Assembly (NCBI GenBank): GCA_964607285.1
Contig: CAZSJW010000002.1
Coordinates: 5,669 to 69,668 of the forward strand
Origin: an uncultured Pseudomonadales bacterium
Lineage (GTDB): Bacteria; Patescibacteriota; Microgenomatia; UBA1400; PJMF01
Reading direction: 5' to 3'
Length of the DNA: 64,000 nt
The notes under the pieces are model-generated. The model saw only the letters and a program-made list of their open reading frames with translations. It had not been told where the DNA came from and did no database searches. The position numbers were made by a program, and so were the translations under genes. How positions within the stretch are numbered: the stretch's first letter is position 1; every line of letters begins with the position of its first letter. Of this stretch, positions 14,164 to 63,700 are shown in pieces.

Positions 14164-14164
14164 A

Positions 14165-22191: not shown

Positions 22192-22193
22192 CT

Positions 22194-22379
22194 ATGATAC
22201 TAACCATTAAAGAAGCACGAGAATTATTAGGAGAAAAAGGTAGTAAATACTCTGAAGGTGATTTAGAGGAGATTATCAATCTTTTCTCACATCTTGCTGA
22301 TCTAATTGTTGATCAGTATTTAGCTCAAAGAGCAATGGATAAGGAAGTGGAGCTTCTCCCTACAACGCCAGATACATAA
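22194..22379 (+). CDS. Hypothetical small protein
   Basis: 61-aa ORF, 2 nt after the previous stop. Confidence 0.2.
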   Translation: MILTIKEARELLGEKGSKYSEGDLEEIINLFSHLADLIVDQYLAQRAMDKEVELLPTTPDT

Positions 22380-22406
22380 CTCTGACGGATACAAATTGAA
22401 ATAAAC

Positions 22407-23141: not shown

Positions 23142-23179
23142 CCGATATACTGTTAATAACTCTTACTTTCAGTTAGCAA

Positions 23180-48038: not shown

Positions 48039-48042
48039 TGAA

Positions 48043-49098
48043 TTATTCTTGAATAACAGTGTGTAAGACTTGCAGTTGTGGTTGCACACTCCGAACTATT
48101 TCAATTGTTTCTGGCTCGGTGGATGTAATTATACTTTGATACTTTGGGATAAGTGCAAGTGCATGCTGTTTACTGTCTGCATCAAGCTCAGACAAGATAT
48201 CGTCCAACAATAACACAACAGGCATTTTGAGTCGTTGTGCGTACCGTAACTCACACAGCTTCATCCACAGCACTGCCATTCGCTGCTGACCACGAGAACC
48301 AAACGCCGCAATATCTCGTCGTTCACCCCCGATTGGTAATGAAACTGTAAAATCATCGCGGTGTGGACCAATGAGACTGTGCCCAGCAGCAATTTCCCGC
48401 GGCAGATACTGTTTCTGCCGTTCCTCAGACATCACTGATGGTACGTAATTGACTGTAAACGGTAAAGCAAAATCTGCTGCACTACAACTATGTAAAAAAT
48501 CACGGCGAAATGTTTGCACTTCTGTGCCGTGCTTGAGTACACCTGCATTCCAATACGTTAACGCTGCTACTGATTGCTCACCGAGCTTGACTTGCCCCAA
48601 TAGCTTGTTCCGCCTAGTCAATGTTTGTTCATATGCTTTCAAAGCTCTCGCATACGCTGCGTGTAAAACTTGCAGTGCGTCATCCAAAAATGCCCGTCTC
48701 CGACCAGTCGAGCCTTCAATCAGTCTCATATCCTCTGGCCGAAACAGTACTGGGAAAACTCTACTCACCGCATCTTGCTTTCTACGCCTGATGCCATTAA
48801 CACTAAATAACCTACCCAGTGTTCTCTTGCCCTGCACAAGCCCACGGGTCACCATAACCTCAACAGTATCTTGCTCAATGACGGCCTGTACTCGCCCTAA
48901 TTCTGCACCAAACAAAATTAAATCAGATATTTGCTGCGCTCTAAAGCTATTTCCTGTCATTGCTAAGTACGCAACTTCTAAAATTGTGGTCTTGCCACTT
49001 GCGTTGGCTCCAACAATCACAACTGCTGGCTGCTCAAATCTAAGCTGGAAGCTCGAATACGACCGTAAGTTATGCAAAGTAAGTGACGAAAGTGTCAT
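48043..49098 (-). CDS. recF: DNA replication and repair protein RecF
   Basis: N-terminus LTLHNLRSYSSFQLRFEQPAVVIVGANASGKTTILEAVYLAMTGNSFRA (Walker A). SMC-like signature and Walker B (VVLLLDDILSELD) near the C-terminus. Confidence 0.8.
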   Translation of the reverse strand: MTLSSLTLHNLRSYSSFQLRFEQPAVVIVGANASGKTTILEVAYLAMTGNSFRAQQISDLILFGAELGRVQAVIEQDTVEVMVTRGLVQGKRTLGRLFSVNGIRRRKQDAVSRVFPVLFRPEDMRLIEGSTGRRRAFLDDALQVLHAAYARALKAYEQTLTRRNKLLGQVKLGEQSVAALTYWNAGVLKHGTEVQTFRRDFLHSCSAADFALPFTVNYVPSVMSEERQKQYLPREIAAGHSLIGPHRDDFTVSLPIGGERRDIAAFGSRGQQRMAVLWMKLCELRYAQRLKMPVVLLLDDILSELDADSKQHALALIPKYQSIITSTEPETIEIVRSVQPQLQVLHTVIQE

Positions 49099-49125: not shown

Positions 49126-50850
49126 TTATTTTCGTTCAATATTGAAAAATGAAAACCCCGTTTGTGGAATTGAGATATATCCAGGAGCACGAGTATTGAA
49201 TGCTTCCTTAAACTCGGCACCACTCATTGAAACTGACCCACGATTTGTTTGGAACGTAACGCTTGTAGTCTGGCCAGAGTCGCTATGTGAGACCGATGGT
49301 TTACCACTGATGCTAGTGACGGGATTACTCACTAACTTTCGCACCTCTTCCATACTATATGGATCACCCGACTGCCCACCAACCGCACAGCTTTTTATAG
49401 TTACGGGGAGAATTCTTCCTGTATCCGCACCACCAGGATCTTTCCGTAATAGCCATGTATTCAAAATATCAGACATCTCCTCCTCTGAAAGCCATGCCTT
49501 CCTACCACAGGATGATGAGTCATTTCGATATCCCTGCCTATACCAGGCTTTGTAGAACCATGGTGAGTTACCTTTACTCTCCCAAGCTCGACTTGTCCAA
49601 TCACCACTGCCATTTTTATCTGTAGTATCCCAACCAGAAGTTGAGAGGTACCCACCTGAAGTTGAGGAATAATAAGTAACTACATCTTCTAAAACTTGAC
49701 CTCTGGTCTCCTGGACTGCCTGTTTCCACTTTTCTGGGACACTCGCAGCCTTACTGCCCGAATATACTTGGCAAGCTTCTGTGGTACAAATTGATTTTCC
49801 ATCTTGTTTGTATCTGTATGCATAGGTGCGAGCAGCAACGGCTTGTGCTTTTAGTGCTTCAATTGGCCAATCAGATGGCATTTCGGCAATACCATACAAG
49901 TATTGATCCTCGAAAGGAATCGAGCCAACACCAGTCACATTAATTGATCCACCTGTGTCCTTACTGGTTGGTTCTTTCCCATAGTACGCTTGCAAAATTT
50001 CTTTGAATGATTGACCTGCATCAGCTCGAGCTTTTGCCCCGTACTGACTCATGCCTTTTCGATGTGTATACGCCCCGAATGAAAAAACTGCAAATGAACC
50101 ACTCGGTGCGTTATCTCTAAAACCTGCGATTGAGGCGTCATAATCAGAGCCAATTGGTACATTCCCGGCACTGGTGGTAGTTGAACCCGAGCGTGCAGCT
50201 AAAACAGCTTGCTGTTGCGCCGAAAGTGCTGCAATTTTTCCCGAAAGTTCTTTTTGGTATGACTTTGCTTTTGTGATCTCGCCTTGAAAAAAAGCTGCTT
50301 GTTCATCAAGTTGTTTTTCTAAGGCAGCCAGTTTCTGTTGATCTGACTCTAGTTTCTTCTTATCAGCTTCCAATCCTACAATGTCTGTGCCAATATCCTG
50401 AATGAGTCGATTATCCTGTGCTTTAATTGAGCTACGATATGCCAAGTCCTTTGTCAAATCACTGGCATCACCCGTTGAAACAAGAGCGAGCAATGGTGAG
50501 TATGTTCGTGTCTTTTTATACTGTTCAAAGATTCGCCTTGAAAGCAATGCGTACTGATACGACAAGGCTTTTTCACGCTGATCAATTGTTTTTGAAAGGT
50601 CTAGAGCTTCAGCTTTTGCACGAACAATCCCTGCCCGAGCGTTGTCAATTTTTGACTCTAAAGTATCCACTTCTTTTTCAAGTGGCTTAGTAGCATCTTC
50701 CGAAAGCTTTTTTAGATTTGCTAAATCATCAATTTGCCTCTGGAGTTCCTGAACTTCATCAGCAAATACGGGCATCTGGTTTTGAAGCAGTCCAGATGTG
50801 TAAATGAGCATCAATACTATACTCGAGGCGAGAACTCTACGTATACGCAT
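49126..50850 (-). CDS. SpoIID/LytB-domain protein with an N-terminal coiled-coil region (probable cell-wall remodelling protein)
   Basis: Signal/TM, then ~200 aa of heptad-like charged repeats. C-terminal GMSQYGAKARADAGQSFKEILQAYYG matches the SpoIID/LytB signature. Confidence 0.65.
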   Translation of the reverse strand: MRIRRVLASSIVLMLIYTSGLLQNQMPVFADEVQELQRQIDDLANLKKLSEDATKPLEKEVDTLESKIDNARAGIVRAKAEALDLSKTIDQREKALSYQYALLSRRIFEQYKKTRTYSPLLALVSTGDASDLTKDLAYRSSIKAQDNRLIQDIGTDIVGLEADKKKLESDQQKLAALEKQLDEQAAFFQGEITKAKSYQKELSGKIAALSAQQQAVLAARSGSTTTSAGNVPIGSDYDASIAGFRDNAPSGSFAVFSFGAYTHRKGMSQYGAKARADAGQSFKEILQAYYGKEPTSKDTGGSINVTGVGSIPFEDQYLYGIAEMPSDWPIEALKAQAVAARTYAYRYKQDGKSICTTEACQVYSGSKAASVPEKWKQAVQETRGQVLEDVVTYYSSTSGGYLSTSGWDTTDKNGSGDWTSRAWESKGNSPWFYKAWYRQGYRNDSSSCGRKAWLSEEEMSDILNTWLLRKDPGGADTGRILPVTIKSCAVGGQSGDPYSMEEVRKLVSNPVTSISGKPSVSHSDSGQTTSVTFQTNRGSVSMSGAEFKEAFNTRAPGYISIPQTGFSFFNIERK

Positions 50851-50964: not shown

Positions 50965-52260
50965 ATGAAGAATTTTCGCAGAGTACTCATTCGCTCATTT
51001 TTTTTGTTGCTGCTTTCTTTGGTATCAATTGCAAACTTACTGAGCCCAACACAGGTCTACGCAGTAGATAATTGTGCTGACACATATAGCATCTTTACTG
51101 ACTCATTTACTGTGAGCTCCAATGAAATTCTCAATGGTGACATCGGCGAAAGTCTGTCTATTTCTCTTTCAGGATTCTCTCCTGGCCTTACATACAATAT
51201 ATATGGCATTACCGTTAATCCAAACATAGCTACCTCTATTAAACAGCCACTAACTGTTGCTGGAGGCAAAGCTACTATCATGCTTACCGATCCTAGTTAC
51301 TTCTACATGCCTGATTATAATCTCGACCAGCCTTGGCTTTTGCATATTGAGGCAGTAGATTCCAGAGGTGATGTTGCTTGGGATTGTGCGATAAGTGAGA
51401 GCTTTTACACTATTAAAAAGGCAGTGTTTAGCTGTGCTCAGCTTGTTGTTTCACAGGATCGATCCGTAGATGTAGATGGCGATGGTGTTCCAGATATGTG
51501 CCACCAAACACCTACTAATGGTGGCTGCATTGATGCTACAGCCGATATAGTGATTTCTGGGTACATATACAAAGGCAACCAACCTTCAGCAAATCATCGG
51601 ATCAATACCGATATAGGTGGAGCTGGTGGTAGAAATGAAAAAACAGATACAACTGCAGCAGATGGATCTTTCAGTGTTACATATCCTGCCCAAGAACCTG
51701 ACACTTATAGACTCAGAGTTGAAGGGAAAACTGTTCCAAGCATCGGTTTTAACATCTGTAACCTTTCAGACTTTATTCGCATAAAACCACAGTGTGATGA
51801 CGCACCTGCGGGTGGACTACCACCAGAGTGTTCGATCACCAAACCTCCAGCACCTCTTCCTGGCCAACCACCGGGTCCTGTGCGAGGTGCAATTGATTCG
51901 TTTTCCTTCTGTTCACAAATCAATGACCCAGCACTCAAGATTGAGTGTTTAGATTGTGCAGGGGGTGAAAAAGGCTATGCAGGTGTCTGGACAGCAATTG
52001 GCTGTATAAAACGTGAACCTGAAGCAATTGTTCGTAAATTTATGGTTGTAGGCATCAGTACAGGTGGTGGTGTAGCACTGCTCAGTTTCCTCGCCGCTGG
52101 GTTTACCCTAAGCACTTCGCAAGGTGATGCCAAACGCATCGATGATGCTAAACAGCTACTGACTGCCTCAATTACTGGTTTGCTTTTTATCATTTTTTCG
52201 GTCACAATTCTTGAATATATTGGGTATTCAATACTTGGTATTCCAGGCTTTGGCGGATAA
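50965..52260 (+). CDS. Secreted Cys-rich adhesin-like domain fused to a C-terminal two-helix TrbC/VirB2-like pilin module (paralog 1 of 11)
   Basis: Signal peptide MKNFRRVLIRSFFLLLLSLVSIANLLSPTQVYA. ~330-aa Cys-containing ectodomain (DVDGDGVPDMC…). C-terminus has hydrophobic helix, ...STSQGDAKRIDDAKQLL..., then a second hydrophobic helix. ATG at 50965; the ORF-track start at 50734 would overlap the upstream gene. Confidence 0.5.
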   Translation: MKNFRRVLIRSFFLLLLSLVSIANLLSPTQVYAVDNCADTYSIFTDSFTVSSNEILNGDIGESLSISLSGFSPGLTYNIYGITVNPNIATSIKQPLTVAGGKATIMLTDPSYFYMPDYNLDQPWLLHIEAVDSRGDVAWDCAISESFYTIKKAVFSCAQLVVSQDRSVDVDGDGVPDMCHQTPTNGGCIDATADIVISGYIYKGNQPSANHRINTDIGGAGGRNEKTDTTAADGSFSVTYPAQEPDTYRLRVEGKTVPSIGFNICNLSDFIRIKPQCDDAPAGGLPPECSITKPPAPLPGQPPGPVRGAIDSFSFCSQINDPALKIECLDCAGGEKGYAGVWTAIGCIKREPEAIVRKFMVVGISTGGGVALLSFLAAGFTLSTSQGDAKRIDDAKQLLTASITGLLFIIFSVTILEYIGYSILGIPGFGG

Positions 52261-52265
52261 CCACT

Positions 52266-52793
52266 ATGCTGCATTTTTCCAACATTATCAAAACAGTGAA
52301 TATTACTCGGTTACTGCTAGTAGGATTATTGTTCGTTGCACTGAATGTGGGAACAGTAAGCAGCGAGTCAAACCAGGTATTTGCAGCAGAAACTTGTTAC
52401 GAAACTTGTATTAGAATAGGTGGTAGTCCTGGAAAATGTGAAGATGACTGCGGTGGTCCTCCTGTTGATGTATTCAACCCAAAAGCAGGTCCCAGCTCCG
52501 AAACGTTTGATTTTCTCAACCCATTAGAACTCGGTTCAAAAGCTAGCACGCTTTCCACTCCTGGAGGGATAATTTCTGAAATCTTGGTATTTATTTTCCC
52601 TCTAGCTGGGTTAGTTCTATTCTTAATGCTTGTATGGGGTGGCTTTGAAATACTAATTGGGGGTGCAAACAAGAAATCAATTGATACAGGTAAACAGCGC
52701 ATTACTTCAGCACTCACAGGATTTTTCTTACTCTTTAGTTCGTACTGGATTACTCAAATCCTAGAGTACATTTTTGGCGTTGCAATTCTGTAA
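52266..52793 (+). CDS. Pilin-like two-helix protein (TrbC/VirB2-like fold), paralog 2
   Basis: Signal peptide, Cys-containing head (CYETCIRIGGSPGKCEDDCGG). C-terminal module ...LFLMLVWGGFEILIGGANKKSIDTGKQRITSALTGFFLLFSSYWI. Confidence 0.5.
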   Translation: MLHFSNIIKTVNITRLLLVGLLFVALNVGTVSSESNQVFAAETCYETCIRIGGSPGKCEDDCGGPPVDVFNPKAGPSSETFDFLNPLELGSKASTLSTPGGIISEILVFIFPLAGLVLFLMLVWGGFEILIGGANKKSIDTGKQRITSALTGFFLLFSSYWITQILEYIFGVAIL

Positions 52794-52800
52794 TCTGTAT

Positions 52801-53499
52801 CTATCCACCGAATCGTCTTTGTCGCTGCTCGTACTCAGCAATCGCTCGATCAAGTTCTGTTGGCGTGAAGTCGGGGTACAAGACTTCTGAAAAGCACAAC
52901 TCTGAGTACTCACACTGCCAAAGCATAAAACCAGACAACCTCTGTTCACCACCCGTTCTAATGATCAAATCTGGGTCTGGTATACCATCTGTATCAAGAT
53001 ATTTTGAGATTGTGGCAATAGATATGGGTTCTGATTTTTTCTCTTGATCTAAAACAAGTTTTGAAACCGCCCTAACTAACTCATCACGGCCACCATAATT
53101 CATAGCAAAAATGACAGTTATGCCAGTATTCTGAGAGGTGGCTGCAACAGCTTTTTTTACTTGGTCTTGCACATCACTGGGAAAACGCGTGATATCACCA
53201 ATTATCCGCAACTTGACATTATTTTCTGTAAAGAGAGTGATCTTTTTTTCAAACCCAGCGCGAAATAACTGCATGAGCAACTCAATCTCCCTCGGACTAC
53301 GCTTCCAATTCTCAGTGCTAAACACCCAAAATGTCAGGTACTTCACACCTAGTGTAGCTGCATGCCTGATCAGTGGTTCAAATGTTCTTTCGACTGCATT
53401 TTCGTGGCCTTGAATTACTGCTAAGCCATGAGAGCGTGCCCAACGGCGATTTCCATCAGCAATAATTGCAATATGTTGCGGTATTGTTGTTTGCCCCAT
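52801..53499 (-). CDS. uppS: Undecaprenyl-diphosphate synthase (cis-isoprenyl transferase)
   Basis: HIAIIADGNRRWAR and FSTENWKRS motifs, plus the C-terminal RTGGEQRLSGFMLWQ motif. Confidence 0.85.
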   Translation of the reverse strand: MGQTTIPQHIAIIADGNRRWARSHGLAVIQGHENAVERTFEPLIRHAATLGVKYLTFWVFSTENWKRSPREIELLMQLFRAGFEKKITLFTENNVKLRIIGDITRFPSDVQDQVKKAVAATSQNTGITVIFAMNYGGRDELVRAVSKLVLDQEKKSEPISIATISKYLDTDGIPDPDLIIRTGGEQRLSGFMLWQCEYSELCFSEVLYPDFTPTELDRAIAEYEQRQRRFGG

Positions 53500-53507
53500 A
53501 CGACTCT

Positions 53508-54317
53508 TTACTCTACAGCTATTGCCGTACCCAGCACTGGTTTTCCTGAAATAGCATCTGAAAGACTACCGTGTTCAATCCCATCAATAATCAAACCAGG
53601 AATGCCTTGTTTTGCAAGTGAGAGTGCTTCATTGACTTTGTGCAACATCCCACCTGTCACATCAACCCCATCTGAACCCGTTAGCATAGACTCATATTCT
53701 TTGTAATTGTCCTGTGTTATCAGAGGAATTGTATTTCCAGAAAGATCATACACACCATTAGTACGGCCACAATGAATAATTTGTGCCGCAGTATATCCAC
53801 GCTTCTGTAAGTCTATAGCTAAATAGCCAAGCACTCTCTCAGTAGAAAAAATTGTGCAGCCACGTTTTTTATCAAGAATTGCATCTCCATATACAACTGG
53901 GATCATATCCATCTGAAGTACTTGCTCAATACTTCTAGTATCAATTGACTCTAACTCAAAATTACTTGCGCCCATCGTAGAAAGCGGACTGATAGACACA
54001 GCATTCACACCCGCCAGCAATAAAGCCTCCATCACAATTTGATTGAGTTGTTTTGCCGCATGAGCTACTGCGGCAAGCCCTTGAAAACTTTCTTCTGTGA
54101 GAATTCCTTTATGCGTTTGATATCTGTGCGCAGGAACGTGCGCAAATGATCCTGCCCCATGACCAATTACAAGCTTCACCCCAAGCTGAGTAGCTCTATA
54201 CACTTCAAACGCTATCTTTTGTAAAGCATGCTCTCTGACACTATTAGCCACTTGTTTATCAGTGATAAGCGAGCCACCAACTTTTATAAAGTATATTTTT
54301 TGTGTTGGGTTAAACAT
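53508..54317 (-). CDS. Isopentenyl phosphate kinase (amino-acid-kinase fold)
   Basis: N-terminus IYFIKVGGSLITDK and VIGHGAGSFAHVPA (IPK HGGGSFGH-type motif). 269 aa. Sits between IDI and UppS genes. Confidence 0.55.
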   Translation of the reverse strand: MFNPTQKIYFIKVGGSLITDKQVANSVREHALQKIAFEVYRATQLGVKLVIGHGAGSFAHVPAHRYQTHKGILTEESFQGLAAVAHAAKQLNQIVMEALLLAGVNAVSISPLSTMGASNFELESIDTRSIEQVLQMDMIPVVYGDAILDKKRGCTIFSTERVLGYLAIDLQKRGYTAAQIIHCGRTNGVYDLSGNTIPLITQDNYKEYESMLTGSDGVDVTGGMLHKVNEALSLAKQGIPGLIIDGIEHGSLSDAISGKPVLGTAIAVE

Positions 54318-54956
54318 TTAGTTTTTCCTCACGCTGCTTGATTGTTCCAAACGCAGCCAATTAGTTATTCGTTGTCGAAGTGCACGATCTGAACTCATCA
54401 GTGTAAACCATGGCGCAAATGAAGCATCTAGGTTTACTGCATCTGATACCTCTGTCCAAGGCACCCACTGCACAGCTGATACTTCCTTTTCATTTGGCGC
54501 AGCCGTACCGAAGTACCATCCAGTAAAAATATGATCAACTTCATTTTCACTATATAGATCAGAGCACTTAGTTTGGTAAATCAATGTGTATACATCCGTA
54601 AGATTTTCTACATCATGTATGTCTAACTCATATGCAAGTCTTTTTTTTGCACACTCTAGGTAACTCTGTCCAGGTTCAACATTTCCACACACAGTGTTAG
54701 CCCACTGCTCCGCTCCAACCAACTTTTCCGTACTTCGCCGTTGCATAAGCAACTCAACTACCCCATTGTCTATTCTAAATAAAAACACAGATATTGCTCG
54801 ATGTAGCAAACCATCACCTAGGTGAGCTGTTACGACATCTGTCACGCCAATCTCAGCATCGTGCTCATCAACTAGCTGCACCTGCCTATTCATCAGTTTT
54901 CTAAGAGCATCTTCTTTATAACTTACCATGACAAATACAATAGTCGCAAAAACCAC
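54318..54956 (-). CDS. idi: Isopentenyl-diphosphate delta-isomerase, type 1 (Nudix fold)
   Basis: LLHRAISVFLFRIDNGVVELLMQRRSTEKLVGAEQWANTVCGNVEPGQSYLECAKKRLAYELDI follows the IDI-1 pattern (HRAFSVFLFN…LLLQRR…K.TFPG.WTNTCCSHP..GE). Confidence 0.7.
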   Translation of the reverse strand: MVFATIVFVMVSYKEDALRKLMNRQVQLVDEHDAEIGVTDVVTAHLGDGLLHRAISVFLFRIDNGVVELLMQRRSTEKLVGAEQWANTVCGNVEPGQSYLECAKKRLAYELDIHDVENLTDVYTLIYQTKCSDLYSENEVDHIFTGWYFGTAAPNEKEVSAVQWVPWTEVSDAVNLDASFAPWFTLMSSDRALRQRITNWLRLEQSSSVRKN

Positions 54957-54972
54957 TCAAAATCACGCAAAA

Positions 54973-55320
54973 TTAGTGAGATTTTCTAAACACATTCGAG
55001 AAGCGATACAATAAGTAGAATAAAATTACTTGCCAATATACACAAAAAAACGCAACAATATTGCCAATAAAAGGCAGAATATCACAAGCAAAGTTGGGCA
55101 GCGATGCACAAGGAAACAACAAGCCCACTACTGGAACAATAATGGCTCGCCATAAAATCGTTGTGAGCGCAAGCATCACTGTTGGGGTCACTGTTAGCCA
55201 GATTAATGATGAGTCCTTGACCAAAGATTGCATCGTCAAGTACGGATGCAGTAATAGACCAGCAGAGACTCGAGCTACTGCATACATCGTTCTAACTAAT
55301 AGTAGTTGTAGCACTCTCAT
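54973..55320 (-). CDS. Hypothetical membrane protein
   Basis: 115 aa, three hydrophobic helices. Confidence 0.3.
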   Translation of the reverse strand: MRVLQLLLVRTMYAVARVSAGLLLHPYLTMQSLVKDSSLIWLTVTPTVMLALTTILWRAIIVPVVGLLFPCASLPNFACDILPFIGNIVAFFCVYWQVILFYLLYRFSNVFRKSH

Positions 55321-55538
55321 AGTTGCATGATCTCAATAAACACTGCAGTCAGGAATGCACATGCCAATGACACCTGCCAAACATGATTGGCTATAAACGT
55401 GGTGAAAAAACTAAGGGAGGTTGGCAAAATAGGATTTGCCGATAACCGTGCTTGTAATCGTGCTTCAGACTCAAGTACTTTTAGAAAGTCTTCAACATCT
55501 GAGGAGTGTTTTTTATTTTTGCTCATACTATTTTGCAA
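55317..55538 (-). CDS. Small single-pass membrane protein, candidate anti-sigma factor
   Basis: 73 aa. Cytoplasmic N-terminus and C-terminal TM. Start overlaps the stop of the ECF sigma gene region. Assignment is positional only. Confidence 0.3.
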   Translation of the reverse strand: MQNSMSKNKKHSSDVEDFLKVLESEARLQARLSANPILPTSLSFFTTFIANHVWQVSLACAFLTAVFIEIMQL

Positions 55539-55541
55539 AGT

Positions 55542-56096
55542 CTACTCCAACACTACTTTTGACCAAACAGTTTTAAACTCAATTCTTGCCCGAAATAGCT
55601 CTGCTTCCACAGCCTTGATAGTTCTACCAACAATATGAGCTATTTCTGCAACTGATTTCCCATCAACATACTTGAGCTGCAGCAACTCACTCTGCGTTGC
55701 CTTCATTTTGCTTAGAACGACAACTACGCCAGCTGTGCTATTTGCATACGCTTCTCCCTGATCTGAAATCTCAAGAGAATCGAGTTCCAAAAACTGCGAG
55801 AGGGGCAGTGACTTCAATGCTCGCTTTGCATACCGTCTGCGATAGTAGTCAGCTATTTCATGACGAGCTATTGCACACATCCAAGTCCACAAGCTTGATT
55901 TTCCAGAGAACAAAGGTAGTTGCCGCAACGAATTCACAAAAATTTCTTGCACAATATCTTCAGCGTCAGCTTTACTCGAAATTTTTCCCGACACGTACCG
56001 TAATAATTTACTGTGGTATTGTATAAACCACGATCGTACAGACTGCGGATTGCCAGACTTCAAGGAATCAAGTAATTTTGCATCTGAAATGTGCAT
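55542..56096 (-). CDS. RNA polymerase sigma factor, ECF (sigma-70 group 4)
   Basis: Region 2 DAEDIVQEIFVNSLRQLPLFSG…WTWMCAIARHEIADYYRR and region 4 SVAEIAHIVGRTIKAVEAELFRARIEF. Confidence 0.75.
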   Translation of the reverse strand: MHISDAKLLDSLKSGNPQSVRSWFIQYHSKLLRYVSGKISSKADAEDIVQEIFVNSLRQLPLFSGKSSLWTWMCAIARHEIADYYRRRYAKRALKSLPLSQFLELDSLEISDQGEAYANSTAGVVVVLSKMKATQSELLQLKYVDGKSVAEIAHIVGRTIKAVEAELFRARIEFKTVWSKVVLE

Positions 56097-56163
56097 CTTG
56101 CGTCAATAGTGATTTTAACCATACACTAGTTAGTACCAAGTACTATATAATAACACGTACAAT

Positions 56164-56529
56164 ATGATTGGACTTCTGGTTGGTATCGTTGGAAAAGCCT
56201 ATGCGCAAGTGGACTGTTCCCCTGGCGCAGGCGGACTAAACTTGGCAAACTGCCTACAACTGAGTGATGGTCAATATGTTCGAGATGTTTATACAAGCCC
56301 TGCGTTTCTCGTAAACCTAATCGTACGCAACTTGTTCATTGTTGCTGGTATTGTGCTTTTTTTCATGATCATGCTCGCAGGATATAAATTTCTTTATAAA
56401 GACAAAGGTGGTCTGGAAGATGCAAAACAAATTCTCTTCAACGCCGTCATTGGTTTTGTCATCATGTTTTCAGCTTACTGGGTAGTACAATTAATCGCGC
56501 TTATCACTGGAGCAGACATTAGAATTTAA
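56164..56529 (+). CDS. Pilin-like two-helix protein, paralog 3
   Basis: Signal peptide, head with a Cys pair (DCSPGAGGLNLANC). Module ...IVLFFMIMLAGYKFLYKDKGGLEDAKQILFNAVIGFVIMFSAYWV. Confidence 0.5.
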   Translation: MIGLLVGIVGKAYAQVDCSPGAGGLNLANCLQLSDGQYVRDVYTSPAFLVNLIVRNLFIVAGIVLFFMIMLAGYKFLYKDKGGLEDAKQILFNAVIGFVIMFSAYWVVQLIALITGADIRI

Positions 56530-56531
56530 TT

Positions 56532-56981
56532 ATGCATCGTCTACGCCAACTACTACCTCGCCTCATGATGCTCATCATGATTGCAAGTGTGTTTTTGGTT
56601 CTACAAACACCAACTGTCTTTGCTCAGGCTGGTGATCCTTTTGGCACGATAGATACTCCTCCTGGTGTCGAGGTGATCAACCAACGATCAGGTCTGGGAG
56701 CTGATGAAATCCCTATTCTTTACTTCATTAGCATGCTTATCAGGCTAACAACTATCATAGCGGGTGTATGGGCACTACTTAATTTTATTCTGGCTGGCTG
56801 GGCGTACTTAGGCTCAGGGGGAAACGCTCAAGCACACACACAAGCAAGAGACCGTACAACCATGACTGTTCTTGGCTTGCTGCTTATGGTAAGTGTATAC
56901 ACCATTGCAGGCGTGATTGGCTTGATTTTCTTCGGAGACGCAAGTTTCATACTGAACCCAACCATAACAGGACCACTATGA
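56532..56981 (+). CDS. Pilin-like two-helix protein, paralog 4
   Basis: Module ...VWALLNFILAGWAYLGSGGNAQAHTQARDRTTMTVLGLLLMVSVYTIAG. Overlaps the next gene by 4 nt. Confidence 0.5.
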   Translation: MHRLRQLLPRLMMLIMIASVFLVLQTPTVFAQAGDPFGTIDTPPGVEVINQRSGLGADEIPILYFISMLIRLTTIIAGVWALLNFILAGWAYLGSGGNAQAHTQARDRTTMTVLGLLLMVSVYTIAGVIGLIFFGDASFILNPTITGPL

Positions 56982-57526
56982 GGTTTTTTTACTCTAAACT
57001 TACGCTTTCAGTCGCTTTTTTACTCATACTTTTTATGGTTTCTGTCTTTGCTCCAACTGCTGCCCAGGCGCAACAAGGCGGTTGTGTTCGTCCAGGGCAA
57101 TGTATAAATGGTAAGCTGTGTGATTGTCTTGATGGTATGGGATGCTTCCCATCTAATCAGACATGTACCGTTGATGACCCTACCTCAATCACAGGTACAG
57201 TCACTCCCCCACAAGGTGTCGCCGAGTACAATTCCTTAGCGGGAGGTATAGGCATCCTCTCCTTTGCTTCAAAGATTATTTTTTTACTAAACGTAGGTGC
57301 AGGTTTCTTTGCCATGTATAACTTCTTGACCGCGGGACTTATGTACGTGACAGGAGCAGGTGACAGTGGTGCCCACACGAAAGTAAAAGATAAACTCACC
57401 TTTACTTTCGTAGGTATAGCACTAATCGTTTCTACCTATACATTGGGAGGACTGATTGGTTTGATTTTCTATGGAGACGCCAGCTTTTTACTAAATCCAC
57501 AGCTGCAAGGAGCACTGGAGAACTAA
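56978..57526 (+). CDS. Pilin-like two-helix protein, paralog 5 (Cys-rich head)
   Basis: Head GGCVRPGQCINGKLCDCLDGMGCFPSNQTC. Module ...FAMYNFLTAGLMYVTGAGDSGAHTKVKDKLTFTFVGIALIVSTYTLGG. Confidence 0.5.
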   Translation: MRFFYSKLTLSVAFLLILFMVSVFAPTAAQAQQGGCVRPGQCINGKLCDCLDGMGCFPSNQTCTVDDPTSITGTVTPPQGVAEYNSLAGGIGILSFASKIIFLLNVGAGFFAMYNFLTAGLMYVTGAGDSGAHTKVKDKLTFTFVGIALIVSTYTLGGLIGLIFYGDASFLLNPQLQGALEN

Positions 57527-57532
57527 TCGTAG

Positions 57533-57934
57533 TTGTTATATACTATCTCTAATATGTTTGTCATACTCCCCACACTTATTGCGCAGTTCGGCGGTGGCTT
57601 TGATACTACAAACATGCCACTTAGCCAGGGCTCTGACACTGAGGAAGGTGCTCTTACTAATTTTGAGTTAATTATCTCCAACTTTATCGGCTTCATGACA
57701 GTGCTTGCAGGCATTTTTTTTATTGTCTACTTCATAATCGCTGCATTCAACTGGGTCACCTCTGGAGGAGACTCCGGAAAGCTCCAAAGTGCACGAGATC
57801 GCATGTTGCACGGAATTTTAGGATTAATAATAGTTGTTGGTAGTTACGCAATAGTCGGTTTACTGGGTACAATCATTGGTTTAGATGTACTTAGACCAGC
57901 AGATGCCATTCGAGATACATTAATCCCAAGGTAA
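57533..57934 (+). CDS. Pilin-like two-helix protein, paralog 6
   Basis: Module ...IFFIVYFIIAAFNWVTSGGDSGKLQSARDRMLHGILGLIIVVGSYAIVG. Confidence 0.5.
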   Translation: MLYTISNMFVILPTLIAQFGGGFDTTNMPLSQGSDTEEGALTNFELIISNFIGFMTVLAGIFFIVYFIIAAFNWVTSGGDSGKLQSARDRMLHGILGLIIVVGSYAIVGLLGTIIGLDVLRPADAIRDTLIPR

Positions 57935-57939
57935 TACTC

Positions 57940-58383
57940 ATGCACTCACCATCAAAACACACACAGTATCTAAGCAAGGTGACACTAGTTGGATTGTTTG
58001 CAACTCTATTTTCTCAGACAACTCAAGTTTCAGCTCAAATTAGCAACCCCGCCATTAAAGAACTAGGCTCAGCAGATAATGTCACGGCGGCAGAAAGTGG
58101 CTCACTATTTGCAGGATACTTTGTCTCTCTCTGGAGTTCCGTCATTTCACTTGGTGCAGTTGCAGTGCTCATTTACTTCGTATGGGGATCATTTGAGTGG
58201 ATCACTGCAGGTGGCGATTCAGCCAAAACAGATAAAGCACGCCAAAGGATCACAAACGCTATGCTTGGTCTATTTATTCTTGTGAGTACATTTGTTATCA
58301 TTAACTTTATGAGCTTCCTGTTCTTCGGTGATGAGTTCCAAATTCTCAGAATTACATTCCCAGGAGCTAGCACAGGACTATAA
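57940..58383 (+). CDS. Pilin-like two-helix protein, paralog 7
   Basis: Module ...AVLIYFVWGSFEWITAGGDSAKTDKARQRITNAMLGLFILVSTFVIIN. Confidence 0.5.
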   Translation: MHSPSKHTQYLSKVTLVGLFATLFSQTTQVSAQISNPAIKELGSADNVTAAESGSLFAGYFVSLWSSVISLGAVAVLIYFVWGSFEWITAGGDSAKTDKARQRITNAMLGLFILVSTFVIINFMSFLFFGDEFQILRITFPGASTGL

Positions 58384-58385
58384 GT

Positions 58386-58775
58386 ATGGCTTTTATTGCT
58401 GACATTCCAACTGAACCAGGATCTGGGGGTGGACCAGTAGATGGTGCATTACTCGATTTCAAGAACAAGTCGATTGATGTTCTGCCAGGAGTAGATACCG
58501 TAACGGCATACTCACCTGGAGGTAGTTTCGGTGCTTTGATCGGTCAAATCATGAGCATCGCCATGACAATCGCAGCGATATTACTTCTGCTCTATTTTGT
58601 TTGGGGCGCAATTGAGTGGGCTGCTTCAGGTGGAGACAAAAGCAAAATCGAAAAAGCCCGAGGGAGAATTTCAAACGCGATTACAGGTATTATCGTACTA
58701 TCATCCACAGCAGCAGTTATCATGATCGTTCAATCCTTCCTTGGTATTGAGATTCTCAAGTTTACAGGTTTATGA
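58386..58775 (+). CDS. Pilin-like two-helix protein, paralog 8 (terminates at a TGA that is followed by an in-frame open extension)
   Basis: Module ...LLLLYFVWGAIEWAASGGDKSKIEKARGRISNAITGIIVLSSTAAVIM. Stop TGA at 58773-58775. Confidence 0.5.
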   Translation: MAFIADIPTEPGSGGGPVDGALLDFKNKSIDVLPGVDTVTAYSPGGSFGALIGQIMSIAMTIAAILLLLYFVWGAIEWAASGGDKSKIEKARGRISNAITGIIVLSSTAAVIMIVQSFLGIEILKFTGL

Positions 58776-59070
58776 AATCCTGACTATGGTGGTGGCGGCA
58801 TCAGCGGTTATCCCAATGGTGGTGGTGGCGGAAGTGGTGGTTCTGGCGGAGGATCTGGCGGAGGATCTGGCAGTGGCACCTGTACTCTTGGACAAGGTCT
58901 CCTCAACGACGGCGGTGCTGGTAACTACTGCACACAAGGTGCGGCTATGGTTGAGTGTCACGGCCCAGACACTCACCCAAATGGGAGCTATACTTATAAC
59001 CACTACGATCCTTGTTACTGTATAGACGGCACACAGTATCAACGACCTAATTACGATTTTGGTTCATGTT
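58776..59070 (+). other. In-frame, stop-free 98-codon extension beyond the TGA of 58386..58775, encoding a Gly/Ser linker plus a 6-Cys module; no start codon of its own
   Basis: Translation NPDYGGGGISGYPNGGGGGSGGSGGGSGGGSGSGTCTLGQGLLNDGGAGNYCTQGAAMVECHGPDTHPNGSYTYNHYDPCYCIDGTQYQRPNYDFGSC*. Same frame as the upstream pilin gene. The first in-frame ATG is at codon ~65 and has no RBS. Confidence 0.4.
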
Positions 59071-59075
59071 AAAAC

Positions 59076-59110
59076 TTGACTCTAAGATCGCTAACTCTGT
59101 ATAATGAATT
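59076..59110 (+). promoter_or_regulatory. Near-consensus sigma-70-type promoter upstream of pilin paralog 9
   Basis: TTGACT (59076-59081), 18-nt spacer, TATAAT (59100-59105), followed by a second TGTTATAAT. RBS AGGAG 7 nt before the ATG at 59169. Confidence 0.5.
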
Positions 59111-59168
59111 GGTACTCTGTTATAATAATTACAACAACGTACATAAGTACGATACAATAAGGAGCGCA

Positions 59169-59573
59169 ATGAAAAATGCCTTAAGAAAAATTTCTACTCT
59201 GGGAGCCAGTGTTAGTGCTGGACTTCTTACTGTAGTCTCTGCCGTACAAGCTCAGGGTGTGGACATCGCTCCAATCAACCCAGGACAAGGCTTCTTCGAC
59301 GACGTAGGTGTACTGATCAACGGCTTATTGAGTTTCGTTATGGTTCTTGCAGCACTACTCGTTTTTATGTACCTCATCTGGGGTGGCATCGAATGGATCA
59401 CATCTGGTGGCGACAAAGGCAAGACAGAGTCAGCACGTAATAAAATTACCTCAGCTGTTATCGGTTTGATTGTCTTGGCTGCTTCGTATGCCATCTTGCT
59501 ACTCGTCCTAAGCTTCTTAGGCTTCGGTAGCTTGAATGACGTCTTCGATAACATTAAACCTGTAGCAAACTAA
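59169..59573 (+). CDS. Pilin-like two-helix protein, paralog 9
   Basis: ATG at 59169 with an AGGAG RBS; the ORF-track TTG start at 59076 is the promoter -35. Signal peptide MKNALRKISTLGASVSAGLLTVVSAVQA. Module ...LLVFMYLIWGGIEWITSGGDKGKTESARNKITSAVIGLIVLAASYAIL. Confidence 0.55.
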   Translation: MKNALRKISTLGASVSAGLLTVVSAVQAQGVDIAPINPGQGFFDDVGVLINGLLSFVMVLAALLVFMYLIWGGIEWITSGGDKGKTESARNKITSAVIGLIVLAASYAILLLVLSFLGFGSLNDVFDNIKPVAN

Positions 59574-59594
59574 TATATTACTACACAACTCAAA

Positions 59595-59624
59595 CCCTCC
59601 GTTGCAAAACGGAGGGTTTTTTGT
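59595..59624 (+). terminator. Rho-independent terminator after pilin paralog 9
   Basis: CCCTCCGTTgcaaaAACGGAGGG followed by TTTTTTGTTG (9-bp stem, 5-nt loop, T-run). Confidence 0.7.
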
Positions 59625-59685
59625 TGAAACAGAACGTTTTCATTACTACTAGGCAGTACTGATATATTTTTATATACTACCGCTC

Positions 59686-60276
59686 ATGTCAAAAGGTGGT
59701 TCAATCATTGCTACAACAATCCTTTTTTTGGGTTTGGTGCTGTACAGTACCCAATCGGTCTTTGCATCGGTGAGCTCAGAACACAACATTATTCGGGGAG
59801 CAGATGGCGTGATCTACATATCTACAGAACTTAATGACACCCAAGAGTTGAGCAACATACCCTCTAATTTAAAGTCAAATCAAACTCCCGCCCCCTCACA
59901 AATTGACCAGACTAAACCTTCACCTGCCACTCCTTCTGCTACTCCAAATTCCACTCGCAAAATCAAAGGAGTTAAACCAATAACTATGCCTGAGGGGTTT
60001 TTTGCAAATATTACAACACTAATTAACGGATTACTGCGCGTAGTATTCCTAATAGCTACGTTACTCACTTTTTTGTTTCTCCTGCGTGGTGGTTTCTCCT
60101 GGATTACATCTGGGGGTGATCGAGGCAAACTTGAAAGTGCTAGAAGTACCATACTTGCTGCAGTCATTGGATTGATAATCGTAAGTGCCAGCTACGCCAT
60201 TCTCACCATAGTGATCCAACTAATTGGTTTCAATTCCCTAGAACAAGTATTCCAACAAGGGCTCACTCGCCAGTGA
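59686..60276 (+). CDS. Pilin-like two-helix protein, paralog 10 (Pro/Ser/Thr-rich head)
   Basis: Signal peptide; head QTPAPSQIDQTKPSPATPSATPNSTRK. Module ...LLTFLFLLRGGFSWITSGGDRGKLESARSTILAAVIGLIIVSASYAIL. Confidence 0.5.
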   Translation: MSKGGSIIATTILFLGLVLYSTQSVFASVSSEHNIIRGADGVIYISTELNDTQELSNIPSNLKSNQTPAPSQIDQTKPSPATPSATPNSTRKIKGVKPITMPEGFFANITTLINGLLRVVFLIATLLTFLFLLRGGFSWITSGGDRGKLESARSTILAAVIGLIIVSASYAILTIVIQLIGFNSLEQVFQQGLTRQ

Positions 60277-60305
60277 TCATAAGACTTGCTATAATGGAAA
60301 TATAT

Positions 60306-60746
60306 ATGAAATCATTCCTTGCCAAATCCAAAAAAATTCTCTCTGCAACCACTGCCTACCTTGCGCCACAAATAGCATCACTCGTGATTGCAACACAGGT
60401 ACACGCGCAGTCTGAATGGACGGGAGTCTGCGTGGGCGGAGGATCTGAAGACCCCAGTGTCAAGGATGTAGCAACAATTCAAGGGTTAGAGTGTTTGATT
60501 GCAAATGTATTTAGTGTTGCAATCACCTTGATTGGACTTGCAGGTTTTGTGATGTTCATAATTGGTTCATTTCGCTGGCTAGCATCTGGGGGCAACTCAA
60601 AACAAATCGAAACTGCCAAAGGCAGCATGACCTATGCAGTTGTGGGACTCGTAACTTCGCTGAGTGCATTTATAGTTATAGAGTTACTTGCCTCTTTCAC
60701 TGGGGTAACCATTCTTCGCACCTTTAGCATCCCAACCTCTAACTAA
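60306..60746 (+). CDS. Pilin-like two-helix protein, paralog 11
   Basis: ATG at 60306 with TATAAT at 60290-60295. Signal peptide; head with Cys (GVCVGGGSEDPS…GLECL). Module ...FVMFIIGSFRWLASGGNSKQIETAKGSMTYAVVGLVTSLSAFIVIE. Confidence 0.5.
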   Translation: MKSFLAKSKKILSATTAYLAPQIASLVIATQVHAQSEWTGVCVGGGSEDPSVKDVATIQGLECLIANVFSVAITLIGLAGFVMFIIGSFRWLASGGNSKQIETAKGSMTYAVVGLVTSLSAFIVIELLASFTGVTILRTFSIPTSN

Positions 60747-60783
60747 CTGAACATACAGAGCATTATCCAGTATAATAAGTACC

Positions 60784-63700
60784 ATGCGTGCAGCAGCCAT
60801 TGCTCTCCTAGCATTTTTTTATCTTAGTATTGTGCCTCTTTTAGTGCCTGCGCAAGCACAATCTGGTGCTGCTGCCACACTGGCTGCAGACATTGATGAA
60901 TTTTTCTCCCGAGGAGCTACTGGTTTTATTGTTTGGCAATACGGTGGTGACTACAACGGCAGGCAAATTGCAGTCGACCAATTCACTTTTTACCGTGACA
61001 GAGACACTGAAATATGTGCTGTCATGAAAGAAAAAGCCTCTGCAAACCCTGGAAAATTTATTGGCGTCAATATCAATAATATTGGTGCTATTGAATTTAC
61101 GGGTGGCGTGGCTACAGACCACTTTACATGGTTAAAGGCAAATTGTGGTGTGAGCGTGGTTCGTGTGTTTGCAAAGATCGAGGGTGCTGCGGGTGTACAA
61201 AATGCCCTCACCGCTGGTGAGCAAGCAGGAGTACAAATACTTGTTGCTATTGGTGACTATAGCAACGGTGGTGGTGGTATGCCGCAAGGTGCAGACCAGT
61301 CTTGGTACGAAACAGGCTACAAAGGTGAGTACCAAGCACTTGTGCAACAGCTGGCCGCACTCAAAGGCCATTCTGCGCTATACGGTTTTGAACTTGCAAA
61401 TGAGCCACACTGTGGCGGCAACGCCGCGGCAATTGAAGCCTACAAAAACTGGGGAATTGCCATTAGTGCGCTTTTAGGACATCCAAAAGTAGGATATGGC
61501 CAGATGGCAAGCCAAAATACTACCAGATGTGATAGTCCAGGTCCTGGTGACTTTTCTATCACCAATGCTGTGCCTGGCATAACAATGACCTCAGCACATT
61601 ACTACTCTACTCAAGAAAAAGCCAATGCTCTTTTAGCATTGACACAAAGCTTGCAAATTGGCAAACCGTTCTACATTGGAGAAGCACCACCAGGAGATAT
61701 TGGAGCAGAAGGAAGTACCTACAATGCTGATGACGCCTGGTACTACCTCCACCCTATTCGTGGTGTATCTCCAGGTGGAAATGTCCCTGAAAGATCTACG
61801 GATATCATTCGTGAAGACCTTGCCAATCAAGGCTACCAAACATACTGTGCTGCATCCGATGCAACAATCAAGCTTGAGGTGAATACTGTGGATATTATGG
61901 AACGCTTTATTTCCTTGTACGGTGGTGTGGATCTTGAAACCACCTCGACCTACGATCAAAGTACCATGAACAGTCGCACTCCTTTGTACCGTGATGTTGG
62001 CGGAAAGCGATTTTACAACTCCTCCATCGAGGAGTATTTTGGCTACATAGATAGCATCAATGAGTCCCCTAGTCGGTCTGAAATTCAAACTGCACCTGTA
62101 AACTCATTACTATCAGCTGAACAGCGCTGCATTCAATCAGTCAGTGCGCTGACAGCCGCTGAACTCATGTGTGAACGGCTCAAAGATTGGGAGAAATGCG
62201 CCTTGTTCTCCAGACCAGTTCCCACTACGGACTGGAATGTGAAACAGCTACTTGAGAAAATTGGTGCCGTTATGGAACACAGAGCTGGTGGCATATCTGC
62301 TGGGTGTAGGAAGCTTTTTGGCGGTACTGGTTCTACAGAAAGCTATACAGAACTGCAAAAAGCAATCCTTAACACGCCATACTACTTGGACAGGTCATAT
62401 CGTTTAGGATTTCTCGTCACAACCATTGAATATAAACGATACAACCCACCCGATCTTTTCAACTTTTTCTCAGCGAAACATCGTGGTAATGATGCTGCAC
62501 AAGAAGACCCAAGACATGAAGTTTTAATCACTGCATTCAAAATTCCCGATATCCTCACAAACAAAGGTGGCGGTGAAACAAGCGGACATACGTACTGGGA
62601 TGATCCAGCCATGATCACTCGTAATACCTTAGTCCCCAAAAAAACAGGTTTTGATGTGTTCAAGCAAGGAGCGGAAACACTGCGAAATGAAACTAAGGCC
62701 ATGGCTAAGGCAGCAAGTAACCAAACAAGCAGTTCTACTATTTACTGCATCAAAAACGGTGTCGGAAGTCCCGCTTGTCAGGACGAGCTCGGAAAAGCCA
62801 TTGTCGATTTGATAAACGGCAGAAGCCCTAGCTGTGATGCCAATACAGATGAGCCAGTTTCCGAGATAAGCGATTCAGGCCAAATTCCGTTTGGTATTGT
62901 ACCCGTAACGGATTCAGGATTACTTTTTAGACCTGGATATGGGTTTGGAGAAGAACTTTTTGTAGAATTATTCAAAAATTATGACGATTTAACTAGTCAA
63001 AACCCACATCTTGCTAAAACAGATCCAGTGTTATCACTTTTTAAAATTGCAGGTGGCTGGCAACTCGGTCCAACGGCGCAGGCCAAGTTCTACCTCGTCT
63101 ATCCAATGGGGTATGAACTTGAAGAAGTGACAAACGTACTGCAAGGCACCTTTTTCACTGCTGAACAAATCAGCACCCTCACTTCCAAAGATCCGCCAGC
63201 AGATCGTTTTGAACTAAAAAATGTCAGTAGCGGCTTGAGCGGAGGAACTGCAAGTAAATCCTTCCCTGATACAACTGATCCAGGAAGCTGTCAGCCTGTG
63301 ATCAATCCCACCACTGGCCTTCCGTTCAGAGACCCAGAAACTGGTCAGATTGTTACGAAGTGTCCAGAAAAGGAATTTTCATTAAGTATCTTACAAACTG
63401 GTGGGGGCGGCAGCGCGCTCACAGGAGCTAGACTAGGATACTGGTTGCGCAAGCTGCAACTTACCCTGAACCCAATTTTTACCAAATCATATGCGTATAT
63501 CCAATCTTGCAGAACGACGGAACAGTTTCTTTTGGGCACTTGTGCTGGAGGACCTGTGCTGACGCCATCGTATGGTAATGGTTCAGCATCCGATCCCAAC
63601 TGTGGCATTGGTTTTCCAACTGGGGATGAGATCAACCCGCCATACGAAGCACAGTCTCCACTTGTAGCTGGTATTACCCAAGTACCAAAAACACCATACT

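Follow-up and report, generated by a model that had tools for sequence, protein, structure and literature searches.

Eleven neighbouring genes that end in the same two-helix module and carry quite different heads raise the question of whether they are interchangeable versions of one surface protein or separate parts of one machine. They lie in a 64,000-nucleotide stretch (hereafter, the window) of contig CAZSJW010000002.1, from an uncultured bacterium of the Microgenomatia (Patescibacteria), and we number them g1 to g11. We lean slightly towards the second answer: g9 would be the major pilin and its neighbours dedicated minor pilins, with disulfide-rich or immunoglobulin (Ig)-like heads, of a monoderm-type type IV secretion system (T4SS).

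An array of eleven genes with a common C-terminal module

The eleven genes occupy positions 50965-60746 of the + strand and share a C-terminal two-helix module, formed by their last ~90 residues, that we recognised from open reading frames (ORFs), alignment and hydropathy windows. A hidden Markov model of the 11 C-terminal 100-residue ends returned exactly 11 matches in the window, all of them in the array, which agrees with the eleven-member array described in a first-pass annotation of the same DNA. That annotation had also seen the array as split by an extracytoplasmic function (ECF)-sigma/isoprenoid operon, and Pfam confirmed a − strand cassette at 52801-56096 that separates g2 from g3. 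The genes are given below with their matches to the Pfam family PF18895 (T4SS_pilin); a tightly packed block, g3-g8, begins with g3, and the ORF of g11 opens at GTG 60273.

50965-52260, + strand: g1, 431 aa, 12 Cys, pilin-family protein with a large head
52266-52793, + strand: g2, 175 aa, 4-Cys head; PF18895 E 1.2e-8, 35.3 bits
56164-56529, + strand: g3, 121 aa, one Cys pair; PF18895 E 1.1e-5; TrbC E 0.0012
56532-56981, + strand: g4, 149 aa, no Cys; PF18895 E 0.0015, under the cutoff
56978-57526, + strand: g5, 182 aa, 6-Cys head; no PF18895 match alone
57533-57934, + strand: g6, 133 aa, no Cys; PF18895 E 3.5e-6, 27.4 bits
57940-58383, + strand: g7, 147 aa, no Cys; PF18895 E 2.5e-6
58386-58775, + strand: g8, 129 aa as called, no Cys, stop codon TGA at 58773-58775; PF18895 E 2.5e-8
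59169-59573, + strand: g9, 134 aa, minimal head, no Cys; PF18895 E 4.3e-9; NF045849 E 2.1e-8
59686-60276, + strand: g10, 196 aa, Pro/Thr/Ser-rich head, no Cys; PF18895 E 9.9e-6
60306-60746, + strand: g11, 146 aa from ATG 60306, one Cys pair; PF18895 E 4.7e-8

The array is kept gene by gene across the class

We compared the array with 81 related loci from Pacebacteria, Woesebacteria and Microgenomates metagenome-assembled genomes, many of which are mislabelled "Pseudomonadales". The order g3-g4-(g5)-g6-g7-g8-g9-(g10)-g11 was kept in 529 of 534 adjacent pairs, and for every paralogue an orthologue stands at the corresponding position in dozens of genomes of the Microgenomatia, with best matches running collinearly. 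Modules of orthologues share 48-66% identity, which leaves a margin of 5-31 points over the next paralogue; between paralogues the identity is 13-57%, with a mean of 26%. Orthologues of g3 were present in 65 loci, those of g6 in 72-74 and those of g11 in 77, the last with conserved W.GVC and GLEC motifs. The g1-g2 pair is conserved in ~22 loci and directly abuts g3 in some genomes (L043, L072 and L078). Two members are lineage-restricted duplicates: g5, found in only ~25-30 loci, derives from g4 (47% module identity), and g10 derives from g9 (57%).

A repeat search of the array revealed a single piece of shared DNA, 80 nt that are 70% identical between g4 and g5, and no meaningful inverted repeats, long repeats, silent cassettes or invertible elements. 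Collinear positional orthology together with this lack of recombination repeats indicates an ancient, fixed set and argues against the ongoing duplication, diversification and antigenic variation that the first-pass annotation had suggested, a proposal that we do not uphold. As read from these comparisons, the array is an ancient, ordered set kept across the Microgenomatia and not a recently expanding repertoire.

g9 carries its own expression signals

One gene of the set is marked by transcription and translation signals of its own.

59076-59105, + strand: promoter-like site of g9, TTGACT-18-TATAAT, an 11/12 match and the best in a 10.7-kb region
59592-59619, + strand: intrinsic terminator of g9, a 12-bp stem with 6 GC pairs and a T-run, also the best in the 10.7-kb region

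An AAGGAG Shine-Dalgarno site precedes g9 only among the array genes. Both flanking signals recur in the 81 loci: a promoter match of at least 10/12 lies upstream of the g9 orthologue in 68% of them (0-18% for the other genes), and a hairpin of ≤−10 kcal/mol with a T-run follows it in 84% (0-6% after the other genes). The median upstream gap is 92 nt for g9, compared with 2-11 nt for g2-g8, 85 nt for g10 and 47 nt for g11. Moreover, g9 has the smallest head and is the most conserved member of the array, with more than 1000 homologues, the best 120 of which are 56-84% identical over ~134 aa. Gap, promoter, Shine-Dalgarno site, terminator and conservation together are what would mark a major subunit whose gene is nested in an operon of minor ones, and we regard g9 as the putative major pilin.

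In front of g3, 12 nt separate a TATAAT box from the ATG, and in 44 loci such a box is conserved close ahead of the start codon. TATAAT-like boxes precede the start codons of four genes by 7-12 nt: g3, g10, g11 and the gene of the large protein downstream of the array (56140-56166, 59673-59688, 60290-60308 and 60771-60786 of the window). This spacing suggests that these four genes may have leaderless or near-leaderless transcripts.

Module fold, topology and family

The two hydrophobic helices of the module and the short polar, positively charged loop between them were seen both in hydropathy windows and in the alignment. The motif that the first-pass annotation had assigned to all eleven genes holds in its strict form, W-[ILVA]-[TA]-[SA]-G-G-[DN]..K...A-[RK], in g6-g11; in g1-g5 it is degenerate (for example STSQGDAKRIDDAK in g1 and YKDKGGLEDAK in g3). 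An AlphaFold2 model of g9 forms a helical hairpin (residues 46-78 and 83-116) with a predicted local distance difference test score (pLDDT) of 88-94. The array N-termini are ordinary type I signal peptides without a class III prepilin motif. The first-pass annotation had named missing signal-peptide cleavage as a reason to give up its view of the topology; by eye, 8 of the 11 genes have canonical signal peptides, mostly with A before and Q after the cleavage point, while g3 and g6 have short hydrophobic N-termini that are marginal as signal peptides and g8 has none. With a signal peptide, a helix, a positive loop and a second helix, and with a modelled hairpin at pLDDT ~90, the T4SS-pilin topology proposed earlier stands.

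These features fit a hairpin whose loop faces the cytoplasm and whose two termini lie outside the cell: because the positively charged loop would face the cytoplasm, both termini would be external. The layout agrees not only with the charge of the loop and the Cys-rich N-terminal heads, but also with the C-terminal Cys-rich heads of the g8 orthologues described below, for which only a topology with both termini outside fits.

At the level of families, PF18895 (gathering score 26.6 bits) matched 9 of the 11 genes. Six of them, g2, g6, g7, g8, g9 and g11, scored above the threshold (27.4-36.7 bits) and g3, g4 and g10 below it (19-26 bits); g1 and g5 have no match of their own, and most g1 orthologues have a precomputed one. 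In a sample of 124 orthologues, 118 matched PF18895 at E≤0.01. These matches support placing the array module in this curated T4SS pilin family. The nearest named relative of g9 is NCBIfam NF045849, a "pilin-like conjugal transfer protein" of Mycoplasma integrative and conjugative elements (ICEs), which g9 matched with 33.8 bits (E 2.1e-8), covering 74 of the 80 positions of the profile, and which matched 49 of the 124 orthologues (E≤0.001) with no competing family. The equivalog cutoff of NF045849 is 40 bits, so that g9 is homologous to this family but outside its equivalog.

The search against PF04956 (TrbC/VirB2) that the first-pass annotation had called for did not reach the gathering score of 27.9 bits for any of the 11 genes (best g3, 19.5 bits, E 0.0012; g9, E 0.016). 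Among the 124 orthologues, 11 matched it at E≤0.01 (best 2.9e-4), about as many as the 13 that matched a noise family, WLS-like_TM. Type IV pilins and pseudopilins, also proposed for comparison, found no counterpart: no type IV pilin, pseudopilin or N_methyl family of Pfam matched any of the 11 genes at E≤1. As for holin and immunity families, the sole match was Phage_holin_3_6 to g6 (E 0.44), and none occurred among the families matched by the 124 orthologues; no such two-helix family, which the earlier text had named as the outcome that would undo its assignment, competes with the pilin one.

Heads at either end of the module and modules joined in one chain

The sequences bear out the Cys-containing heads, the Pro/Thr-rich stretch (g10) and the ~330-aa ectodomain (g1) of the first-pass annotation. 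In g1, a signal peptide is followed by two Ig/macroglobulin-like β-sandwich domains, a Pro-rich linker, a Cys-rich juxtamembrane motif and the two-helix module; the two domains support the description of g1 as adhesin-like. Heads diverge faster than modules (15% vs 58% identity for g1, 23% vs 63% for g2), and their Cys scaffolds are kept among orthologues; in g1, 12 Cys are invariant or nearly so. The heads are therefore variable on long time scales only.

A further head was found behind a stop codon. The frame of g8 continues past its TGA for 98 codons (58776-59072, + strand), which encode a 6-Cys domain and a linker rich in Gly. In another assembly, a sibling contig (L001, with this stretch at 151-450) is identical over 1193 bp except for a TGG where g8 has TGA, and intact g8 orthologues of 190-222 aa with the same C-terminal domain occur in six loci (L002, L004, L007, L011, L012 and L019), that of L002 having Trp at the TGA position. 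The sibling sequence and the intact orthologues indicate that this genome lost the C-terminal head of g8 by one nonsense change; it is possible that the TGA is instead a sequencing error or a strain polymorphism. An alternative genetic code with TGA as a sense codon was rejected: g4 and g10 end normally in TGA, long ORFs are intact under table 11, and the sibling shows a plain TGG/TGA single-nucleotide polymorphism (SNP). Leaky, low-level read-through of the UGA by tRNA-Trp is possible, and nothing supports it.

Modules were also found joined to one another. In four genomes a g7-type and a g8-type module are fused in one ORF (L065:9028-9843, L068:4402-5229, L075:9015-9809 and L081:221-874), giving two hairpins with a ~50-aa external linker. 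When we searched a public protein library with a profile of the 11 modules, 88,356 cluster representatives matched, and the top matches (P0361, P0362, P0363, P0364 and P0381) were single chains with one signal peptide and 2-17 tandem modules, the largest being 1775 aa long with 17 modules. The fusions and the multi-module chains agree with hairpins packed side by side with both termini outside, and the fusion of the neighbours g7 and g8 points to co-assembly and not to alternation.

Neighbouring genes and the link to a T4SS

The cassette between g2 and g3, the gene after g11 and a T4SS ATPase gene are arranged as follows.

52801-53499, − strand: undecaprenyl-PP synthase (Pfam)
53508-54317, − strand: protein of the amino-acid-kinase fold, probably isopentenyl phosphate kinase (Pfam)
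54318-54956, − strand: NUDIX protein, IDI-like (Pfam)
54973-55538, − strand: two small membrane proteins
55542-56096, − strand: ECF sigma factor, divergent from g3 (Pfam)
60784-64000, + strand: large secreted protein with a signal peptide, longer than 1072 aa and running off the window
33396-35783, − strand: VirB4/VirD4-class T4SS ATPase, 795 aa (Pfam DUF87, TrwB_AAD_bind, TraG-D_C)

The ECF sigma gene stands divergently upstream of the array, with the two small membrane proteins, in 52 of the 81 related loci. Control of the array by this factor was considered and rejected: in 44 loci, the intergenic regions ahead of g3 showed a conserved housekeeping-type TATAAT near the ATG and no ECF-type promoter.

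The large secreted protein directly follows the array in 37 loci. The first-pass annotation called it a giant protein related to glycoside hydrolase family 5 (GH5); its size, its signal peptide and its position are as described, and the GH5 similarity is weak. The N-terminal domain matched Pfam Cellulase with E 0.0048 (in the L002 orthologue) and the mannanase 3ziz of the PDB with E 0.0026, and it has the NEP motif. A C-terminal lytic-transglycosylase-like domain suspected by eye in this protein was confirmed by no tool.

The ATPase gene lies 15 kb upstream of g1, and its product has an N-terminal transmembrane (TM) segment. Its matches to NCBIfam families and to solved type IV coupling proteins (DotL, TrwB) are restricted to the Walker A region, so that the earlier label of VirB4 holds as far as the VirB4/VirD4 class, and the choice between VirB4 and a VirD4-like coupling protein is not secure. 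Convergent with it is a 1267-aa ORF (29539-33342, + strand) with no TM segment and no family match. The first-pass annotation had advised looking for cognate VirB6/VirB8-like genes; a search of the window with Pfam and NCBIfam for VirB6, VirB3 and VirB8 found none near the ATPase.

A possible partner appears on the other side of the array in relatives. In 35 loci, ~6 kb downstream of g9, there is a gene for a polytopic protein of ~540-600 aa with a signal peptide, an outer domain of ~150 aa and at least five TM helices (for example L002:16054-17811 and L004:15945-17558); the equivalent here would lie just beyond base 64000, where the window ends. Its matches to the Mycoplasma ICE families MMCAP2_0566 and Mbov_0396 are weak (for each family 5 of 32 members, with a best E of 9e-7); the genes of these families adjoin a pilin-like gene and VirB4 in those elements. 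We consider it a candidate VirB6-like channel part.

A proposed assembly and its alternatives

In the assembly that we slightly favour, g9 would be made abundantly from its own promoter, Shine-Dalgarno site and terminator and would build up the main part of a filament or conduit of the VirB2 type. The genes of the packed g3-g8 block, expressed at low levels in this view, plus g10, g11 and the g1-g2 pair, would supply dedicated minor subunits whose heads (disulfide-stabilised; Ig-like in g1; C-terminal in g8 orthologues) would lie outside and touch the host cell or cell wall. A monoderm MPF-FATA-like T4SS, with its ATPase 15 kb upstream and its VirB6-like partner ~6 kb downstream of g9 in relatives, would assemble them and may serve contact or exchange with the host cell. 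The large GH5-like secreted protein would be a conserved partner that perhaps hydrolyses glycans or the cell wall. Heteromeric contact is supported by the g7-g8 fusions and the 2-17-module chains, outside-facing heads by the conserved Cys scaffolds, the Ig/macroglobulin-like domains of g1 and the C-terminal heads of g8 orthologues, and the T4SS link by the polytopic protein with its matches to Mycoplasma ICE families and by the ATPase in the window.

Several observations weigh against this assembly. To our knowledge, a filament has been observed for no Patescibacteria T4SS, and the expression levels are read from sequence signals only. Links to bona fide VirB2/TrbC are weak (19.5 bits against the 27.9-bit cutoff of PF04956; 11 of 124 orthologues), and hhalign placed the module in register with a VirB2 alignment at a non-significant E of 0.02-0.07, with a VirB2 set so narrow (≥55% identity) that the power of the comparison was limited. 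Against the PDB, a profile of g9 orthologues retrieved no pilin among the sequences, only chance CD20 matches, and Foldseek with the g9 model retrieved no pilin and nothing below E 1. None of the 81 loci has the T4SS ATPase gene less than 10 kb from the array, a clear signal peptide is missing in g8 and only marginal in g3 and g6, and the Mycoplasma relatives are uncharacterised and were called VirB3-like by one group (PMC12857230).

This last point leads to the alternative that the hairpins are membrane-embedded channel or platform parts of a monoderm T4SS, VirB3-like and arranged as a ring or bundle, which display their heads without any filament. Gram-positive-type T4SSs are not known to make pili (PMC12857230, PMC12102498), the nearest named relatives are small membrane proteins of Mycoplasma ICEs next to the VirB6-like CDS16 that a review regards as VirB3-like, chains of 2-17 modules would be polytopic membrane proteins, and g1 with its 330-aa ectodomain resembles an anchored adhesin. 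However, VirB3 has no signal peptide and a cytoplasmic N-terminus, whereas the array proteins mostly have cleavable signal peptides and would have both termini outside, and separate PrgI/VirB3 homologues are reported from Patescibacteria (PMC12102498). A single conserved gene, g9, with signals for high expression also suits a polymer better than a channel part of fixed stoichiometry, and fusions through external linkers suit a pilus lattice as well. We judge this alternative, the main rival of our proposal, unlikely, though it deserves to be kept in view.

A repertoire of alternative pilins, generated by ongoing duplication for antigenic variation or host-range switching (a speculation also found in PMC12102498), seems to us quite improbable. 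It would account for heads that are wholly different between paralogues and outpace their modules (15% vs 58% in g1, 23% vs 63% in g2), for the lineage-specific duplicates g5 from g4 and g10 from g9, and for a g8 head switched off by a single SNP here and not in the sibling contig, and arrays of VirB2 paralogues in Anaplasma and Bartonella, cited in that paper, offer a precedent. Yet the orthology is strictly collinear over 81 loci from several candidate phyla-level groups, the top paralogue identity is 57%, the repeat search turned up no silent cassettes, no invertible elements and no long stretches of repeated DNA, the array has one fixed expression architecture with a single strongly signalled gene, and the g7-g8 fusions imply co-assembly. 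That the module is an unrelated two-TM family (a holin, a bacteriocin immunity protein or a generic anchor) which mimics pilin topology is very hard to credit. Chance matches to two-helix hairpins are easily obtained, the VirB2 links lie below significance and there are a few weak matches to unrelated TM families; against this stand the specific, repeated matches to PF18895 and NF045849 with a best holin match of E 0.44, the conserved linkage of the array to the gene of a polytopic relative of Mycoplasma ICE conjugation proteins, and a homologous array that is essential within the Southlakia T4SS cluster (PMC10633639).

A more far-reaching form of our proposal is that the locus is the parts list of a heteromeric monoderm VirB2-type pilus, with g9 as the major subunit and at least six universally conserved, non-redundant minor ones, whose distinct disulfide-rich, Ig-like or C-terminal heads would make up a tip for host contact or decorate the shaft. 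The major-pilin transcription unit nested in the array throughout the class and the natural module fusions support it; we offer it tentatively, as an idea that may well prove wrong. We know of no T4SS pilus with such a major/minor heteromeric architecture. If the idea were true, the Patescibacteria pilin would descend from the "pilin-like" membrane proteins of MPF-FATA systems (Mycoplasma ICEs) and would not have been borrowed from diderms.

Comparison with published arrays and known systems

Classical VirB2 systems have one pilin and VirB5. Unlike them, loci of the present kind have large, varied heads at the N- or C-terminus and encode as many as a dozen distinct subunits. With the TrbC/VirB2 proteins at large (PF04956; T-pilin, F-pilin TraA and archaeal CedA1/8dfu) the array proteins share a signal peptide, often cut between A and Q, two helices, a short positively charged loop and a predicted layout with both termini outside; they differ in that the similarity falls under the family thresholds and that the host is a monoderm. 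A functional analogy could be drawn with type IV pili and type II secretion (PilA with FimU/PilVWXE; GspG with GspHIJK), where one abundant subunit, with strong expression signals of its own, goes with a conserved, ordered operon of low-abundance paralogues that differ in their outer domains. It is an analogy only: fold and machine are unrelated, and the array genes have no class III signal peptide or N-methyl motif.

The closest named sequence relatives are Mbov_0395/MMCAP2_0565 (NF045849) of Mycoplasma ICEs, and both systems are of the monoderm MPF-FATA type. The resemblance extends to the polytopic protein that is encoded after the array in relatives and that matches the ICE neighbour MMCAP2_0566/Mbov_0396. 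Those elements, in contrast, are reported with one or two such genes, have no array and serve DNA conjugation. Tandem sets of several divergent VirB2-type genes are known from Anaplasma and Bartonella (as cited in PMC12102498), where a role in evading the immune system of the animal host is ascribed to them; here, by contrast, we found gene-by-gene conservation across a whole class and no recombination substrates.

Arrays of this kind are already published, and the present locus adds one more example. In 383 Patescibacteria assemblies, Quinonero-Coronel et al. 2025 (PMC12102498) counted 441 VirB2-like arrays with 2-11 genes each, commonest in Microgenomatia and Saccharimonadia, with a mean identity of 25% and a maximum of 54%; VirB6 is scarce in Microgenomatia in that survey, and its authors speculate on host-range adaptation. 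Our array resembles theirs in its PF18895 matches, its tandem arrangement and its monoderm T4SS, with 11 genes, a mean identity of 26% and a maximum of 57%. In Southlakia epibionticum, six pilins in the T4SS cluster are essential according to Wang et al. 2023 (PMC10633639), and pilin array and T4SS are likewise given as essential in a 2025 review (PMC12857230) that considers the system a possible first pilus-making Gram-positive-type T4SS. The Southlakia array lies inside the T4SS cluster, whereas here 15-20 kb separate array and ATPase. The excerpts of PMC12102498 and PMC10633639 contain no mention of class-wide positional orthology, a nested g9 unit, module fusions or C-terminal heads. The first-pass annotation, for its part, was silent on the published arrays, on g9 as a major subunit set apart and on the C-terminal head of g8 cut off by a stop.

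Only one Patescibacterium is genetically tractable, and it cannot live as an epibiont without its T4SS and pilin array, whose function has been described as completely unknown (PMC11665869, PMC12857230). If the array genes are fixed, co-assembling parts with one major subunit and not interchangeable variants, the question moves from which pilin serves which host to the role of each minor subunit in one machine, and the link to Mycoplasma ICEs bears on the origin of monoderm T4SS "pilins". The major/minor architecture and the Mycoplasma ICE affinity are modest additions, which would make the role of an essential system more testable.

Other features of the window

Away from the array, a low-GC island (0.36-0.39) spans 8248-24736. 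It holds a type I restriction-modification system, into which a nucleotidyltransferase and a putative effector are inserted between hsdR and hsdS, and two recombination genes.

9448-12357: hsdR
12354-12908: SLATT_4 two-TM effector
12913-14163: SMODS nucleotidyltransferase
14165-15325: hsdS
15791-17479: hsdM
17854-18789: integrase-like gene
23180-24736: serine recombinase

A 746-aa ORF near the start of the window (291-2531, + strand) gave a faint S-layer-glycoprotein match only. Between 43759 and 50850 the array is preceded by a housekeeping context, whose last gene is conserved beside g1 in relatives.

43759-45546: ATP-dependent DNA ligase
45610-46731: Fic protein
47112-48089: NAD(P)HX dehydratase-like protein
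48043-49098: RecF-like protein, judged by its sequence
49126-50850: 574-aa coiled-coil protein with a SpoIID domain, the conserved neighbour of g1

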